DNA from: an uncultured Methanosarcinaceae archaeon
Lineage (GTDB): Archaea > Halobacteriota > Methanosarcinia > Methanosarcinales > Methanosarcinaceae
Length of the DNA stretch: 64,000 nucleotides
Assembly: GCA_963733675.1 (NCBI GenBank)
Contig: CAVTET010000004.1
Location: 256,001 to 320,000 of the forward strand
Direction: 5' to 3'
Translations under genes and position numbers: made by a program
Notes under the pieces: model-generated
Told to the model about the DNA's origin: nothing
What the model saw: only the letters and a program-made list of their open reading frames with translations
The model's database searches: none
Shown: piece by piece, positions 45,433 through 51,765 of the stretch
How positions within the stretch are numbered: position 1 is the stretch's first letter
Layout of the letters: every line of letters begins with the position of its first letter

Positions 45433-46236
45433 TTAGAATCGGTTCTTCATTGCCTTTAGTAGTGCTTCGAAAGTGAACTCTTCTGGAATCACTGTTGTGT
45501 TGACCCCATGCTGCTTCAGGGTGTTTCCTGTTGGGATCCCTATAGCTCCTATAACGGCCTTGTTAAGAGCCTTTTTTACGGTTTCCCCTGCTCCCATCAT
45601 CTCTGCATGCTTCATGAAGCCTTTTACCATCATTGAGCTTGTGAAAGCAAAGGCATCCACTTCTCCTTCAAGAGTGCGTTTTATTAGCTTTTTCTGGATA
45701 GCTCCTTCAGGAACGCTGAGTGTATACACATGAGTCTCATAAACCATGGCTCCGCATTCTTCAAGTCCTTCTGTTAAGACCTTAGTCCCAAAAGCGCTTC
45801 TCACAATGTCTACTGTTTTTCCTTTTACCACCAGGCAGAGAGCCTCCAAAATACCTTCAGAGCTGTAGTTTCTTGGGAGAAAGGAATTATCAATTCCTAT
45901 TTTTATGAGTTCTTTTTCCGTATTAGGGCCAATTGCTATTACCCTATTTTTTTTCAATCCTGTGATTAAGTCGTTTTTTTCGCTTTCAGAGAGCTTTTCC
46001 ATAGTAAAATTTATTCCATTTGCACTTGTAAAGATTACATAGTCAGAAGTTTCGGTTATAACTCTTCGTACGAAGGGGTCAAAACCTTCATCTTTCATGC
46101 CTTCAAGCTTTATCATAGGTGCATAGATTGACCTAAAGTTGTAATTTCGAGCAATAGCCTCTGACTTCTTCCTGTAGTTTTCCGGCCTCATGATTGCGAG
46201 GATCGGTATTTTTTTATTTTTTTGTTTTTCTGTCAT
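45433..46236 (-). CDS. hemD: Uroporphyrinogen-III synthase
   Basis: IFTSANG, AIGPNT, FTSSMMV, AIGIPT; context. Confidence 0.9.
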   Translation of the reverse strand: MTEKQKNKKIPILAIMRPENYRKKSEAIARNYNFRSIYAPMIKLEGMKDEGFDPFVRRVITETSDYVIFTSANGINFTMEKLSESEKNDLITGLKKNRVIAIGPNTEKELIKIGIDNSFLPRNYSSEGILEALCLVVKGKTVDIVRSAFGTKVLTEGLEECGAMVYETHVYTLSVPEGAIQKKLIKRTLEGEVDAFAFTSSMMVKGFMKHAEMMGAGETVKKALNKAVIGAIGIPTGNTLKQHGVNTTVIPEEFTFEALLKAMKNRF

Positions 46237-46257
46237 ATCCCTATACCCTCGAGTCTA

Positions 46258-47025
46258 TTAAAATTCAGTTCTAGTATGTTGCTCTCCAAGAACCTTATGC
46301 AGGTTGACCACATCACCCACAATAATGATGGCAGGAGCCTTTACTTTACGTTCCTTTGCAAGATCTGCAATTGTTGCAAGTTTCCCCACAGTCACCCTTT
46401 GGTCAGGCCTGGTCCCTCTCTCAATAACTGCAACAGGTGTCTTAGGATCCTTACCATGCTTAATTAACTCGTCTGCGTTCCAGCCTAACATTTTCACACC
46501 CATCAAGATTACAATAGTTCCTCTTAACTTTGCTAGGGTTTTCCAGTCAAGCCCACTCTCAGGCTTTGTGGGATCTTCATGTCCGGTTATGAAAGTGACC
46601 ATTGATGCGCTTTCCCGGTGGGTTAATGGAATTCCAGCATAAGTAGGCACTGCAATTGCGGAAGTAATTCCTGGAACGACTTCAAAATCGATGCCTTCTG
46701 TTACAAGCACTTCGGCTTCTTCTCCCCCTCTTCCAAAAATATAGGGATCTCCTCCCTTTAGCCGGACAACCATTTTTCCTTCCTTTGCTTTCTGCACAAG
46801 CACTTCATTTATCTCTGTCTGAGACATGGTGTGATTCCCAGCATATTTCCCAACATCTATTTTTTCCGCACTTGCAGGCATAGAGTCCAAGATTACTTTT
46901 CCAGGGAGCTGGTCATAAATAATTACTTCAGCGTTGTCAATCAGACGGCGAGCTTTCAGGGTTAGGAGCTCAGGGTCACCTGGACCTGAGCCTATAAGGT
47001 AAGCTTTTCCGTAATTTCCTGACAT
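46258..47025 (-). CDS. cobA: Uroporphyrinogen-III C-methyltransferase (SUMT)
   Basis: GSGPGDPELLTLKA, RLKGGDPYIFGRGGEE, VPGITSA, THR. Confidence 0.96.
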   Translation of the reverse strand: MSGNYGKAYLIGSGPGDPELLTLKARRLIDNAEVIIYDQLPGKVILDSMPASAEKIDVGKYAGNHTMSQTEINEVLVQKAKEGKMVVRLKGGDPYIFGRGGEEAEVLVTEGIDFEVVPGITSAIAVPTYAGIPLTHRESASMVTFITGHEDPTKPESGLDWKTLAKLRGTIVILMGVKMLGWNADELIKHGKDPKTPVAVIERGTRPDQRVTVGKLATIADLAKERKVKAPAIIIVGDVVNLHKVLGEQHTRTEF

Positions 47026-47393
47026 TTGATGACAATTCCTTTATGGTTTTGAGATTTAAAATGTGTAATCTGGGGAAGTTTAACGAGTTTTTAGAATATA
47101 TAATATCCTAAAAGTAAAGATAAAATTCTTCGAATAATAGATCCAAATCAAATTTACGATGTCACCCCCAACTGAAATAAATATAGTATGTTAATGCGGC
47201 TTTGCACCTAAAGTCACATTTTAGCTCGACTTTAGGTGCAGAAATCAGACTTTAGGTGCAAGTTCAAAATTAGAGCATTTTTCTGATGTGAGATAGTTCT
47301 CAATTAGATTAATTAATTTTAAAATATATTAATAATGCCAATATTATTTTTTAAAAAAAGTTTGAGATGGGAAACCCAGCTCAAGCGGAGAAT

Positions 47394-47510
47394 TTAATTC
47401 TCCTGCAAAACTTTTTGTAGTTGGATACTTACTTTTGCTTTAATCCAAACAAAAATTGATTGGATTATAACATTTATGATAGCTCCAACTACATATTCAA
47501 GGTATTCCAT
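47394..47510 (-). CDS. 38-aa hydrophobic peptide carried in the transposon
   Basis: AGGAG RBS; MEYLEYVVGAIINVIIQSIFVWIKAKVSIQLQKVLQEN; hairpin at 47362-47384 just downstream. Confidence 0.5.
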   Translation of the reverse strand: MEYLEYVVGAIINVIIQSIFVWIKAKVSIQLQKVLQEN

Positions 47511-47851
47511 TTTTGAATACTCCTATCGATATCGTCGATCGTCATAGTATTTTATGATCATCTTCGATTCTTGTAATCGACAAAGTATCCACTAATCTTA
47601 AAAGTTAATAATCTAGTAAAACAGGCTAATATTTTATATACTAACACATTAGTATATACTATATGACCTTTTATGGGTTTATCAACTAATTAGTGTATAT
47701 ACAAATCGATTTGAATAAGTTGAGAGTTACCGACTCAACTTATTGGCAAAATTATAGAATATATTTTTTGTTAAAACCTCCTTTTAAATTCTTAATAAGC
47801 TTACGATGTCATGCTTTTTAAACTTTTGCAAAAGAATAGCAGCGAAGCTCA

Positions 47852-49084
47852 TTAAAAAAACTCTGGATTAATACCATTTTCGTACATCTCATGGATCACT
47901 ACCGTCAAATTATATGCGGCTACTTTTGCCAATAATTCATTTTCCTGAGCGACTCTATTTTTAGATTTTAAGGTCTCTCCGAACTTTCTTTTAATAGCTG
48001 CATTTGTAGATTCAATATTACTTCTCTTATGAAAGTGCTCCATGAACTCTTCACGGTTAAGCTGAAAGTAGTGATACATCTTCTTCCACATAGCAGATCC
48101 AGCTGCCCTTCCAGTCGCATTTTTCTTAAAAGGAATATATGGCTTTGCGCCAATACTATTTACCGTTTCAAGATTTTTGCGGGATGAATAAGCTAAGTCG
48201 GCGGAAACTTCACTGATCATGAAGCCTTCGGATGTCTGGTTAATCAATAAGCTAAATTGTGGAGAGTCATTGCAATTCCCATCCGTTATGCTCACAGAAG
48301 TAACTATGTTAGTCTTTACACCTACGCACATATGGGCTTTAAGCCACTGATGTTCATTGTTCTGGCCATGCTTCACCCCATTATATACGTTGAATGTTGT
48401 GGTTCTAAATCCTGTAGAGTCTACACTAAAATCTGATTCTAATCCGGCTACTGGTAATGCAGATAAGAAGACTAATTTATGCAAAATTTGAGTAATGTCC
48501 GGATTGTTGAAGAGTTTTGAAGGTGCATTAAAATGTGGTGTATGCTTTATTTGACCTTTCTCAGTTGCATTCTGGAACAGACTATATGCTCGACGGCTAG
48601 ATAATTGAGAATAAACCTTTTGGATAGCACAGAAAATTGAGTCATGAAGTGATAAGCGCGGTCTTCCCATTGTTTGCTCTGGTTCAGGGATCGACACAAC
48701 TAAGTCTTTCAGTAATTCATCAGATAGTTTCATTTCTGCTTTCTGAGCTGCATTATAAGCGTTCCACGCTTGAGTATATGTTAAATGTATCTTTTCAGCT
48801 GTTGTGTCATTTGGAGACTCTTTTTGGACTTCTAAGTAAAACTTAGTAGCTATAATATGTTTGCATCTTCCACCACGATTGATAAAATCAGGACATGTGC
48901 AAGTCATTCCATAATCTGTTTCTCGGACATCATAGAATCTATTTTTGGATTGAGACTGCACCTTAAATAAGTGTTCTTTGACCTGTTTTATTTGACTGCT
49001 TTGATTAGCAATTACTTTGCCACGATCTTCCTTGGTGGTTGTATTTTGTGTGATGGCGTTATCAGATAATTTACTCATCTCCAT
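47852..49084 (-). CDS. DDE transposase with N-terminal SWIM zinc finger
   Basis: TCTCPDF..RGGRCKHIIA (SWIM); VDSTGF, WLKAH, NDS, SADLAYSS, PYIP, HKRSNIES..IKRKFG. Confidence 0.92.
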   Translation of the reverse strand: MEMSKLSDNAITQNTTTKEDRGKVIANQSSQIKQVKEHLFKVQSQSKNRFYDVRETDYGMTCTCPDFINRGGRCKHIIATKFYLEVQKESPNDTTAEKIHLTYTQAWNAYNAAQKAEMKLSDELLKDLVVSIPEPEQTMGRPRLSLHDSIFCAIQKVYSQLSSRRAYSLFQNATEKGQIKHTPHFNAPSKLFNNPDITQILHKLVFLSALPVAGLESDFSVDSTGFRTTTFNVYNGVKHGQNNEHQWLKAHMCVGVKTNIVTSVSITDGNCNDSPQFSLLINQTSEGFMISEVSADLAYSSRKNLETVNSIGAKPYIPFKKNATGRAAGSAMWKKMYHYFQLNREEFMEHFHKRSNIESTNAAIKRKFGETLKSKNRVAQENELLAKVAAYNLTVVIHEMYENGINPEFF

Positions 49085-49215
49085 ATATATAATATATTTA
49101 ATGTATTTAATACATTAAATGCATTCACTGAATATAAATGTTTGTATATATTTAATATCGTACATATATAAAACACGTAAAAAACATTATATGCATTCAA
49201 CACATATCATATTTT

Positions 49216-49404
49216 ATGGAGATAGTACCGAAAAGAAAACCAGTTATTAAGAGAAATATAGTATTAAAAATCAATACTTATGAACGATTAGATAAATATA
49301 AAATAAAATTAATAAATGAAAAAGATACATCCCAACTAAGCTATGATGATGTGATAAATTCCTTGCTCGACAAAGTACAAAGCTCAACTAAAAATTGCCT
49401 TTAG
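49216..49404 (+). CDS. Small putative DNA-binding protein (RHH/CopG-like), divergent from transposase
   Basis: NIVLKINTYERLDKYK...SYDDVINSLLD. Confidence 0.7.
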   Translation: MEIVPKRKPVIKRNIVLKINTYERLDKYKIKLINEKDTSQLSYDDVINSLLDKVQSSTKNCL

Positions 49405-50598
49405 TTTATCCGTTGCTTGTATTTGTTCTAATAAATTATTAATATCTATATTTAGGTGCAGAAATTCGACTTTAGGTGCAAGATTAATACTTTAGGTGCA
49501 AAACGTACTTTAAGTGCAAAGCCTGTTAATGCTAAAGCTTTTAATATAAGTAAATTATTCAAAATTAAATATCTTTATTTTCTTATATTGATTCTTTTTC
49601 TTCATGATTTCCCTTATTGTCAACGTAGTTTTTAATTATATCCGAAGTTGTAACATCATCCTTAGTTTCAATGAAACCTGCATAACTCCGGATTTCATCA
49701 TCCATAAGTGTTTTTAATCTTAGAAAACTCTTTAACTATTTTTCATATTATACTTTTTATGATCTAAATCACTCTTGAAGGGAAATATTTTGGTTCGAGA
49801 TCAGCGAAAAGCTTTACATGATCATCATGAGTAAATGAGAGCATTTGTGTAAACCGTTTTCACTATCTTTATGGACTCTATCAGTTCTGAAGGCATAGGT
49901 GCATTTTTATGCAACCTAAAAATTTGGCGTGCTCAGCGCATAGCTGCATTGTTATAATTGTATGAATTTTCAGAGAGTAGCTTATTTGTGATCAATTTTC
50001 AATCAGAGCTGCGGGTTATGATATAAGTATACGTACCTCCGTGATCGATCAAAAACTGCCACTTTGCTTTGAGATCTGAAAAAAGCAGATGTATAGTATT
50101 AATTATTAATCAGGAAATTTTGTACTTAATTTCTCAAACAGATTTTGTGATTTTGTCCTTTTATATCCTTTCATACCTTCCAAAATATCAATATTAGATG
50201 CATTCGAACCAGAGGAAATTACTCGCGTTAAGAGACTGTGTTCCTTATTATTGAAAAATGATTATATGAGTATATCATTATGAGTATTATTATTAATATT
50301 CTAATTATTATTAATATTCTCATTATTAGTATTTATGAAAATCCCATATATGATTGAGAATACAAAAGGATAATTCGCTAAAAGGGAGAAAGGTCGTGAT
50401 AAAAGAAACGTCCTTTTCGTTGTAGTCCTTTATGCAATGATGTCATGCTGCCTGCTTTCAGAAAAATAGCAGAAGCAAAATATCTAGGCTATGTGGCATT
50501 CTAGGAGAGGTCTAAATCCACAAATCCAATGTGAAAAGAGATTCCAGAATGGAGATGACCATCACTGTAAAATAAGATCAAAAGAATAGCAATTTCAA

Positions 50599-51765
50599 AT
50601 GATCTGTAAAATTATAGTCGAAGGTACAACAAAGGTTTTAGTCCCAATACCGCCTAAGGATGCGACCTTCCCCCCCTCTGCAGCTCCAGTTTTTTATAAT
50701 CCAGAGATGGAGCTTAATCGCGATATCAATGTAGCAGCCACAGCAGCATTTGTGGAAAGGCTTCTTTCCAAAAAAATGATTATAAGGGAAAAAATTAGCT
50801 ATGTTGATGCATTTTCTGCGTCAGGGATAAGAGGACTTCGGATCGCAGGAGAAGTGGGCATACATGCGATCTTAAATGACTGGAGCCAAGAAGCTTTTGA
50901 AATGATAACGGAGAATATCAAAATTAACGGGCTTGAGGGAAAAACACTGGCTACTCGCAAGAATGCAAACTTGTTGCTTCATGAAAAAAAATTTCATATC
51001 GTAGATATTGATCCTTTTGGCACACCTTCTCCCTTCTTGGATGCAGCTTCTGCATCAGTACAGAATCTGCTATCGGTTACGGCAACAGATACAGCTCCCC
51101 TGTGTGGGGCCCACCTAAATTCAGGAATTCGTAAATATGCTGCTGTTCCTTTGAACACTGAGTATCATAGTGAGATGGGTCTGCGAGTCCTTCTGGGAGC
51201 TTGTGCAAGAGAACTTGCAAAACATGAAAAAGGTATGTCTCCCCTTCTTTCACATGTGACACGTCACTACGTCCGCACTTACCTCGAAATTACTCCCGGA
51301 ACAAAGCAGGTTGATAGGACTTTAAAGTCGATGGGTTTCAGTATTCACTGCCCGATGTGCGGGTTTAGAGGACATGTGTACGGGCTAGCAGTGTACATTG
51401 ACAAAGAATGCCCTTCATGCAATGCTCTCACACAAATCGCAGGCCCTTTATGGCTTGGGCCTTTCAGAGAACCTAGCTTCTGTAATGAGGTTATTTCAAA
51501 AATCGAAATATATCCTCTAAATACAAAAAGTAAAGCAAAAAAATTAATTATGTTATGTAGAGATGAACTCGATATTCCTATGTTCTATGATCAACATGTG
51601 ATCTGTAAAGGACTAAAGGCTTCTGCAACCGGAATAGAAACTCTGATCGAAGCCCTTAAGGCCAATGAGTTTAAAGCTTCCAGAATTCACTTCAACGGAA
51701 CTTCATTCAGGACTGATGCACCTATTTTCAAAATAAAAAAAATAATCCGAGACCTTTCAGGATAA
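50599..51765 (+). CDS. trm1: tRNA (guanine26-N2)-dimethyltransferase
   Basis: VFYNPEMELNRD, SASGIRGLR, DIDPFGTP, VTATDTAPLCG, GPLWLG. Confidence 0.96.
   Translation: MICKIIVEGTTKVLVPIPPKDATFPPSAAPVFYNPEMELNRDINVAATAAFVERLLSKKMIIREKISYVDAFSASGIRGLRIAGEVGIHAILNDWSQEAFEMITENIKINGLEGKTLATRKNANLLLHEKKFHIVDIDPFGTPSPFLDAASASVQNLLSVTATDTAPLCGAHLNSGIRKYAAVPLNTEYHSEMGLRVLLGACARELAKHEKGMSPLLSHVTRHYVRTYLEITPGTKQVDRTLKSMGFSIHCPMCGFRGHVYGLAVYIDKECPSCNALTQIAGPLWLGPFREPSFCNEVISKIEIYPLNTKSKAKKLIMLCRDELDIPMFYDQHVICKGLKASATGIETLIEALKANEFKASRIHFNGTSFRTDAPIFKIKKIIRDLSG

Follow-up and report, generated by a model that had tools for sequence, protein, structure and literature searches.

The stretch of DNA analyzed here, called the window throughout, is 64,000 nucleotides long and comes from an uncultured Methanosarcinaceae archaeon (assembly GCA_963733675.1, contig CAVTET010000004.1, positions 256,001 to 320,000). 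It contains a 2326-bp mobile element, from 47198 to 49523, that lies between two perfect 9-bp target-site duplications (TSDs). The element carries 17-nt terminal inverted repeats (TIRs), arrays of a 12-bp site at both ends and one long open reading frame (ORF), which encodes a 410-aa transposase. Divergent from the transposase gene is a 62-aa gene whose product resembles ribbon-helix-helix (RHH) proteins (Table 1). The element is an autonomous, recently transposed insertion sequence (IS) of an IS903-like clade, and its identity as a recent insertion of the IS5 family is near certain. The features of wider interest are its asymmetric site arrays, the MITEs (miniature transposable elements with inverted repeats) that consist almost only of such sites, a cassette of SWIM module, regulator and operator-like palindrome common to IS6-like restriction-modification (R-M) transposons, and a fixed distance between the insertion point and a TATA-like box.

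Table 1. Features of the element, its target and the related IS6-like units (window coordinates unless a locus is named)
Feature	Position	Strand	Remarks
Left TSD copy, TGTTAATGC	47189-47197		Single copy at the unoccupied target of G055 and G067
Transposase-distal TIR, GGCTTTGCACCTAAAGT	47198-47214	+	Terminal 12-bp site inside, at offset +6
Two subterminal 12-bp sites, ACTTTAGGTGCA	47229-47260	+	Start at 47229 and 47249; inverted relative to the terminal site; offsets +32, +52
Putative terminator-like hairpin followed by a T-run, on the transposase strand, downstream of the 38-aa ORF	47353-47388	-	Conserved when aligned to L093 and L008
Possible ORF for a hydrophobic peptide of 38 aa, weakly supported	47394-47510	-	One homologous copy, 55% identity over 31 aa (L093/L015)
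Transposase, 410 aa	47852-49084	-	SWIM module (about residues 18-85), disordered linker (87-102), IS5-type DDE domain (D222, D296, E358)
Operator-like palindromes, AATGTAT-TTA-ATACATT overlapping AATACATT-A-AATGCATT	49100-49125		16-41 nt from the transposase start codon
62-aa RHH-like small protein, divergent from the transposase	49216-49404	+	Pfam DUF7557 below cut-off
Transposase-proximal end, four 12-bp sites in the same orientation	49449-49523	+	Start at 49449 (weak), 49469, 49489 and 49507; offsets +64, +44, +24, +6
Transposase-proximal 17-bp TIR	49507-49523		Last 12-bp site lies within
Right TSD copy, TGTTAATGC	49524-49532		Seen in the window sequence; empty-site comparison
Target-flank motif, TAAAGC (BRE-like) then TTTTAATA (TATA-like)	49533-49546	+	TATA-like part 6 nt beyond the TSD
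IS6-like units, 3.6-4.7 kb	L124 221-4923; L112 127-3720; L121 223-3939		R-M cargo, window-type small ORF and operator

Boundaries and insertion history

A first-pass annotation of the sequence had read the 9-bp duplication and a pair of 17-bp TIRs at the ends, and both were found again here. The right end of the element falls one base to the left of the wording used there; position 49532 is the end of the duplication. The same annotation had proposed that relatives be searched for an unoccupied target, and this search was positive. Fifty-nine genomes of the same genus were queried with window positions 46300-50500. In two of them, G055 and G067, the matches to the two flanks overlap by exactly 9 nt, and the flanks are contiguous around a single TGTTAATGC (GTATGTTAATGC/TAAAGCTTTT, with the slash at the junction). 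In genome G064 this junction differs by a single base, TGTTA-TGC. Identity of the flanks to the sister genomes is 82-96%. Because the sister genomes hold an unbroken, single-copy target, the insertion postdates the split of the sister species, and the boundaries are exact. The insertion is thus recent. Metagenome contigs of X1 and X3 span the left junction unchanged. The contigs of four soil metagenome runs carry the insertion at the window's position, and no joint of the empty-site allele was reported in them; contigs drop rare variants, so that this result carries little weight.

Transposase and its SWIM module

The transposase was annotated earlier as an intact protein that fuses a SWIM motif to a DDE domain. 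Its reading frame is indeed intact, and both domains score above their Pfam cut-offs. The catalytic domain, DDE_Tnp_1 (PF01609), matches at residues 217-393 with an E value of 3.7e-22 and 79.5 bits (cut-off 23), and SWIM (PF04434) matches at 1.1e-4 with 22 bits (cut-off 19.6). No rve domain was found in the Pfam scan. In an alignment of 40 sequences, C62, C64, C74, H76, D296, R354 and E358 are invariant, whereas D222 is kept in 39 of the 40. The window transposase also has the DSTG motif (D222), W247/K249/H251, HKRSN and K365.

The best structural matches to a model of the N-terminal module are ZSWIM8 (Z 6.4, root-mean-square deviation 3.1, 72 aligned) and Shu2 (Z 4.7, root-mean-square deviation 4.6, 80 aligned); Foldseek returned no match to this model at E ≤ 0.001. 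A fold search with the whole transposase recovered generic RNase-H-fold transposases and integrases only, with ISCth4 as the best (E 1.6e-5, TM 0.33). The CxCxnCxH zinc motif is also that of Mutator-like elements (MULE/MuDR) and of FAR1/FHY3, as well as of ZSWIM8 and Shu2. In MULE transposases, SWIM lies C-terminal to a different catalytic core. In the window's clade, by contrast, it is N-terminal and fused to an IS5-type core (IS6-type in the cousin elements described below). Full-text literature searches returned no description of SWIM-fused IS5 or IS6 transposases, nor any of multi-site ends in IS5 elements.

Placement within the IS5 family

Searches with the transposase returned 2690 proteins at E ≤ 1e-3 in a 90%-clustered collection, the best of them at 70-82% identity. 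Many of the closest relatives have both Pfam domains and are labeled "transposase" or "IS5 family transposase"; they come mostly from Methanothrix. In a 50%-representative library, 4846, 2453 and 758 matches were obtained at E ≤ 1e-3, 1e-10 and 1e-30, respectively. The pattern CxCx(7-14)CxH occurs in 106 of the 150 best representatives, including 104 of the 124 that have at least 380 residues. Species genomes contributed 74 loci, 71 archaeal and 3 bacterial by title; the archaeal titles name Methanothrix, Methanoregulaceae, Methanosarcinales, Micrarchaeota, Aenigmatarchaeota, Thermoplasmata, Woesearchaeota and others. The clade is large and mostly archaeal, and methanogens and DPANN archaea hold it in abundance. 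Both GGCTTTGCA ends are present at 17 loci, where they delimit elements of 2.0-5.2 kb, and the 9-bp TSD is perfect in 11 of the 15 relatives with readable flanks.

These data overturn the initial view of the element as a distinct archaeal transposon type. It is a member of a huge clade (the 758 clusters at E ≤ 1e-30) whose catalytic domain is of the IS5 family and which is already labeled IS5. The element is a variant within that family, with IS903-like ends and duplication, and not a new type. Its likeness to IS903 and IS903B comprises the 9-bp TSD, the DDE_Tnp_1 domain with DSTG and R-x3-E-x6-K motifs, and ends that begin GGCTTTG, as does the end of IS903. Elements of the IS903 group are about 1 kb in length, with a single gene for a transposase of about 300 aa and simple terminal repeats. 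The window element differs in having 2.3 kb and two genes, a 410-aa transposase with an extra SWIM module of about 100 aa, and three to four sites at each end instead of a simple repeat. Target choice in its clade is, in addition, asymmetric and beside a TATA-like box. A length of 1055 bp is given for ISPye41 in an excerpt of PMC6209633. The best plasmid matches to the window transposase are IS5-family transposases that share 23-27% identity over residues 104-392 in most of the matches (starts 64-104). One plasmid match considered as a possible IS903 proved to be another IS5-type gene beside a resistance gene.

Asymmetric arrays of a 12-bp site

The two TIRs, GGCTTTGCACCTAAAGT and GGCTTTGCACTTAAAGT, are complementary at 16 of 17 positions (94%), and each contains one copy of a 12-bp site, ACTTTAGGTGCA (a single site is also written TGCACCTAAAGT). 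At no more than one mismatch, ACTTTAGGTGCA has six matches in the 64-kb window, at 47203 (minus strand), 47229, 47249, 49469, 49489 and 49507. All six lie inside the element and within 75 bp of its ends. The expected count is 0.29, and none of 100 shuffles reached six. A seventh, weaker copy, TATTTAGGTGCA, lies at 49449-49460. The 10-mer coordinates in the first-pass annotation were all correct.

The arrays are conserved well beyond the window copy. Site offsets were counted in 18 elements, including the one in the window, with the consensus TGCAnnTAAAGT. At the transposase-proximal end, direct sites lie at +6 (by construction), at +24 and +44 (17 of 18 elements for each) and at +64 (window only). 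At the distal end, a direct site lies at +6 in 17 of the 18, and inverted sites lie at +32/33 in 14 and at +52/53 in 11. The multi-site ends first noticed in this single copy are therefore kept in position and orientation across relatives at about 45-77% transposase identity. Of all the features found, this asymmetric and conserved arrangement is the most distinctive. Two bases of the site vary; they are the same within an element and different between elements. They read CC in the window's group and CG in most Methanothrix and Methanoregulaceae elements, while another group has AA/AC at the inner sites and TC/TG at the tip.

Mu, Tn7, Tn552 and eukaryotic elements of the inverted-repeat/direct-repeat type likewise have several site copies per end, arranged differently at each end. 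The window element differs from Mu, Tn7 and Tn552 in that its transposase is of the IS5-type DDE_Tnp_1 class rather than rve/Mu-type, in that it has one transposase gene and lacks both an ATPase and a target selector, and in that its compact arrays span no more than 75 bp.

MITEs in the same genome are made almost wholly of end sites. Copies with a recognizable TSD are 48 bp (TSD GGGATAAGT, 9/9), 68 bp (TSD 8/9), 86 bp (TSD 7/9) and again 86 bp (C4:544285-544370; TSD TTTGGTTCC, 9/9); the bounds of this second 86-bp copy were re-read by eye. Two degenerate copies have no TSD. The sizes step by about 19 bp and correspond to two, three and four sites. In the 86-bp form, the inner sites match the geometry of both ends simultaneously. 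The 17-nt terminus pattern was found in 32 of the 59 same-genus genomes, as compared to three matches in total for the reversed control. Pairs of termini at 48, 67-68 and 86 bp recur in other species, with 9/9 TSDs for 48- and 86-bp copies. These MITEs have themselves moved, and they show that the site arrays alone suffice for mobilization.

Insertion beside TATA-like boxes

The first set of targets comprised 16 sites: the window, the 11 relatives with a perfect TSD and four MITEs. The motif was an octamer matching TTTAWATA at no fewer than seven of eight positions and starting 2-12 nt beyond the TSD on one side. Seven of the 16 sites have such an octamer, where 0.57 are expected over this range, and in all seven it starts at exactly 6 nt. 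When six further, independent sites of MITEs or elements in other species (TSD at least 8/9) are added, 10 of 22 sites have the octamer at offset 6, for which the expectation is 0.089. The six bases between the TSD and the octamer read RAAAMC, which resembles the B recognition element (BRE) of archaeal promoters. The window's own target has this arrangement (Table 1).

Two loci from metagenome-assembled genomes of Methanoregulaceae (L067 and L079) hold different elements, of 2861 and 3041 bp, at the same orthologous flank, which ends in GTGCATAAAGGTTGT. The 9-bp TSDs of the two differ, which suggests repeated use of one target. At another locus (L036, 2571/2581), the second of two copies starts 9 bp past the end of the first, which makes this a tandem insertion with one duplication-sized spacer in common.

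Beyond the right end of the window element lie two adjacent sequences of about 280 bp, at 49544-49830 and 49834-50120. Many copies of this sequence, at 69-78% identity, are present in nearly every genome of the genus, and the window's genome has at least three further copies. A four-copy alignment resembles a small minus-strand gene family that ends near 49583, and the IS landed at its edge.

Small divergent gene and operator-like palindromes

The initial description of the 62-aa protein as RHH-like draws support from a homodimer model with antiparallel N-terminal strands, together with a weak match to DUF7557. Seven homologues share 76-87% identity with it, and the substitutions are conservative (I/V, K/R, D/E); homologues score 12.3 and 14.6 bits against DUF7557. 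The homodimer model, for which a custom alignment was used, scores 0.52 and passes the mark for a homodimer; the best of three controls scores 0.00. Of 30 proteins solved as one-chain pairs, 20 reached this mark, as did 1 of 23 single-chain proteins (counts approximate owing to the custom alignment). At least 90% of contacts are common to repeated runs, and the partner has a predicted local distance difference test value of at least 72. In the model, residues 13-18 pair antiparallel between the copies, and two helices pack across the interface, which is RHH topology. RHH dimers are solved structures that the model possibly remembers, and a pass denotes likeness, not binding.

A small ORF occupies the same place and orientation in 13 of the 17 relatives with both ends, and its family varies. 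RHH_5 was found in four of four tested relatives (46-55 bits, cut-off 26), DUF7557 in L067 (28.8 bits, cut-off 25) and MazE/AbrB in L079 (32.8 bits, cut-off 24.7). Locus L032 gave RHH_6 below cut-off, and L051 a weak zinc-ribbon match, also below cut-off. Each small-ORF family has a palindrome or repeat of its own immediately before the transposase ATG. The window type, also written AATACATTnAATG(T/C)ATT, includes the motif AATACATTnAATGTATT, which is kept at the same place in 15 printed loci with the window's small-ORF family. With the RHH_5 family the palindrome is ACTAATAGTnnCTATTAGT, and with the DUF7557 family there are TATAGT repeats. Because the site motif is constant while the small-ORF family and the palindrome change, the transposase, and not the small protein, probably binds the 12-bp sites.

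A module common to IS6-like transposons

A search of metagenome contigs with the small-ORF alignment yielded 40 loci. In 25 of these, on the strand opposite to that of the small ORF, tblastn with the window transposase matched the N-terminal part only (residues ~6-114, 31-59% identity); one locus, L143, has a full-length match (SWIM plus DDE_Tnp_1). According to Pfam, the N-terminal-only neighbors combine SWIM with DDE_Tnp_IS240 in about 375-400 aa, and some also match an InsA-type zinc ribbon below the cut-off. IS240 was detected in 14 loci, SWIM is listed for 11 of those, and further 5'-truncated SWIM fragments lie at contig ends. When 20 N-termini are aligned (11 IS5-like and 9 IS6-like), R21, V42, S44, Q45, Y51, C62, C64, P65, D66, R70, C74, K75 and H76 are invariant.

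Three IS6-like units with both ends were found (Table 1). They have 50-nt inverted repeats, each with two TGATTCnnTCGGGAG direct repeats, and two of the three have a perfect 8-bp duplication. The cargo of L124 includes a D12 methylase and a SacI-like endonuclease. The transposase of L124 has a zinc-ribbon-like CxxC stretch, visible by eye only. The word "SWIM" is absent from the excerpted text of the IS6 review PMC7986276, in which one IS6 member with a passenger gene is named. Judged from these sequence comparisons, the SWIM module, the small gene and the operator travel together on two catalytic cores, and the end repeats differ between the two. The small protein would therefore read the operator and not the end sites.

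The opposite assignment, in which the small protein is an accessory factor, has a precedent in PIF/Harbinger. In these eukaryotic relatives of IS5, the element encodes an IS5-related DDE transposase and, in addition, a second, small protein that binds DNA. By analogy, the small protein would bind the 20-bp-spaced subterminal sites and recruit the transposase, and SWIM would mediate protein contacts. Short repeats in tandem or inverted arrangement are typical targets of RHH and AbrB proteins, the relatives that keep a small DNA-binding-type ORF beside the transposase (13 of 17, as above) fit such a role, and the structurally matching SWIM proteins, ZSWIM8 and Shu2, sit in protein complexes. However, the 12-bp site and its offsets stay constant whether the small ORF is RHH_5, DUF7557, MazE/AbrB, weakly zinc-ribbon-like or missing. 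Moreover, the window's small-ORF family occurs on the IS6-like elements with a different end repeat and the same intergenic palindrome. The parallel itself is also imperfect: compared by description, the second protein of the window's clade is RHH- or AbrB-like rather than Myb-like, and the window's small gene is divergent with its own palindrome, beside a TSD of 9 bp rather than 3 bp. An accessory role at the ends is thus improbable, and binding of the sites by the transposase is preferred.

The cargo of the 40 loci bears on a different question, namely, what the small protein controls. In 21 of the 40, Pfam identifies a DNA methylase or another R-M gene as the next gene downstream of the small ORF and co-directional with it. 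Two more loci have near-identical, unscanned neighbors, and the other neighbors are Fic, ParB_N, YdjM, MarR or unknown. Because its family more often heads R-M cargo on IS6-like transposons, the role of the small protein may exceed transposition control. The 62-aa gene might even be a leftover cargo regulator (for example, of a lost R-M operon) with no role in transposition, and the element a stripped-down cargo transposon. This explanation accommodates the R-M neighbors in 21 of 40 loci, as well as the 44 bp between the stop of the 62-aa ORF and the weak site at 49449, so that no cargo follows. It does not readily explain why the ORF is intact and conserved here without cargo, or why it is divergent from the SWIM transposase wherever the contig extends, with a palindrome that abuts the transposase start codon and not a cargo gene. 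Other small-ORF families in the same arrangement, furthermore, accompany non-R-M cargo. We consider a pure remnant of cargo regulation unlikely, and favor a role in controlling the transposase.

A broader proposal can be built on these comparisons. The SWIM module, a small dimeric regulator and a palindromic operator might form a portable front end that archaea have joined to two unrelated DDE cores, IS5/IS903-like and IS6-like. The end arrays would be read by SWIM, the cargo (often R-M) would be swappable, and promoters of the BRE/TATA kind would be targeted at their upstream edge, perhaps via DNA that is bent or bound by TATA-binding protein and transcription factor B (TBP/TFB). We put this forward tentatively, and expect that it is more probably wrong than right. 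If true, it would constitute the first sequence-specific DNA-end-binding role for a prokaryotic SWIM domain, and a prokaryotic counterpart of the promoter-targeted integration of yeast retrotransposons.

Proposed mechanism and opposing observations

The features above can be assembled into a working mechanism. The SWIM-containing N-terminal module would serve as a sequence-specific end-binding domain, and several transposase protomers would assemble on the site arrays, at a spacing of about two helical turns. The differing geometries of the arrays would distinguish the two ends during transpososome assembly. The DDE domain would then cut and join with a 9-bp stagger, with insertion directed to the upstream edge of a BRE/TATA-like promoter sequence. 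A dimer of the 62-aa RHH protein would bind the palindrome that overlaps the transposase start and presumed promoter, and thereby repress transposase expression; in cargo-carrying relatives, a protein of the 62-aa type would also control the cargo operon. As a whole, this mechanism seems to us evenly balanced between right and wrong. The complete best explanation, in which identity and mechanism are taken together, we hold to be somewhat probable.

Several observations weigh against this account. The two binding assignments, in which the SWIM module would recognize the sites and the small protein the palindrome, are drawn solely from co-occurrence in sequence. The CxCxnCxH pattern is absent from 44 of the 150 representative relatives, and the match to the NCBIfam IS5 model NF033579 (125.4 bits over residues 135-394) is below its cut-off of 140. 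The small divergent ORF is lacking in 4 of the 17 relatives with both ends. In the window's copy, its only Pfam match is DUF7557, at 13.1 bits with a cut-off of 25, and a search of PDB sequences with the small-ORF profile gave a best E value of 0.88. The prevalence of DNA methylase or R-M genes downstream of its family, described above, belongs here as well. The window's TATA-like motif lies at the 3' side or edge of the repeated minus-strand sequence of about 280 bp, where it is a putative promoter. Finally, the 3.92-Mb assembly has one intact copy of the element, a second transposase remnant on contig C3 has 72% DNA identity and many stops, and the window transposase has F at residue 351, the first position of the Y-x2-R-x3-E-x6-K signature, which is Y in 38 of 40 relatives.

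The last of these observations would also fit a dead relic, that is, a single copy that no longer transposes and whose site arrays are neutral remnants of end duplications. The lone intact copy beside a degenerate one, the replacement of a conserved Y by F351 (which one other aligned sequence also has) and the lack of an empty-site allele in the four soil metagenome assemblies that hold the insertion (contigs only) all agree with such a history. On the other hand, the reading frame and catalytic residues are intact, the empty site is present in sister species whose flanks are 91-96% identical, the arrays are kept in offset and orientation across distant relatives, and site-only MITEs have perfect TSDs. 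A relic is, of the explanations weighed here, the one we find least credible, and we regard it as very unlikely. An element that has transposed recently remains the preferred reading.

If the proposed assignments hold, the element would represent a compact, one-protein transposition system with defined multi-site ends, for which mini-elements of 48-86 bp would be the minimal substrate. It would also provide a testable DNA-binding function for prokaryotic SWIM domains, an example of a regulator-operator cassette exchanged between transposase families, and a family of transposons whose insertions keep a fixed distance to core-promoter motifs of archaea. Such a family would be relevant to the rewiring of archaeal gene expression by mobile elements, and would be a possible genetic tool for methanogens.

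Cargo and neighboring genes

The claim that the element carries passenger genes was borne out in part. The 62-aa gene is real and conserved; otherwise, only the 38-aa hydrophobic ORF, with its one weak homologue, could qualify. The window copy is the smallest member seen of its clade. The 17 closest IS5-like relatives contain 27 cargo ORFs with a length of at least 100 aa, which comprise one NYN nuclease, two SDH/ClpP-like proteases and others with weak or no matches; no DNA methylase is among the 27, and R-M cargo is therefore not typical of this branch. Like passenger-gene ISs (tIS in ISfinder usage), the relatives hold 1-3 kb of non-transposase genes inside their ends. The window copy differs from these in having a small regulator-like gene only, and possibly the 38-aa ORF. 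An Rfam search over 46900-50600 gave no match at E ≤ 1, and the 590-bp non-coding stretch therefore contains no known RNA family.

To the left of the element, at 45433-47025, lie a cobA-like gene (uroporphyrinogen-III methyltransferase-like, 255 aa) and a hemD-like gene (267 aa), both identified by eye from their translations. The practical message at this locus is modest, that of an ordinary recent IS insertion upstream of cobA. The IS sits 164 bp upstream of the start of the cobA-like gene, and a nearer AT-rich, promoter-like stretch is undamaged.

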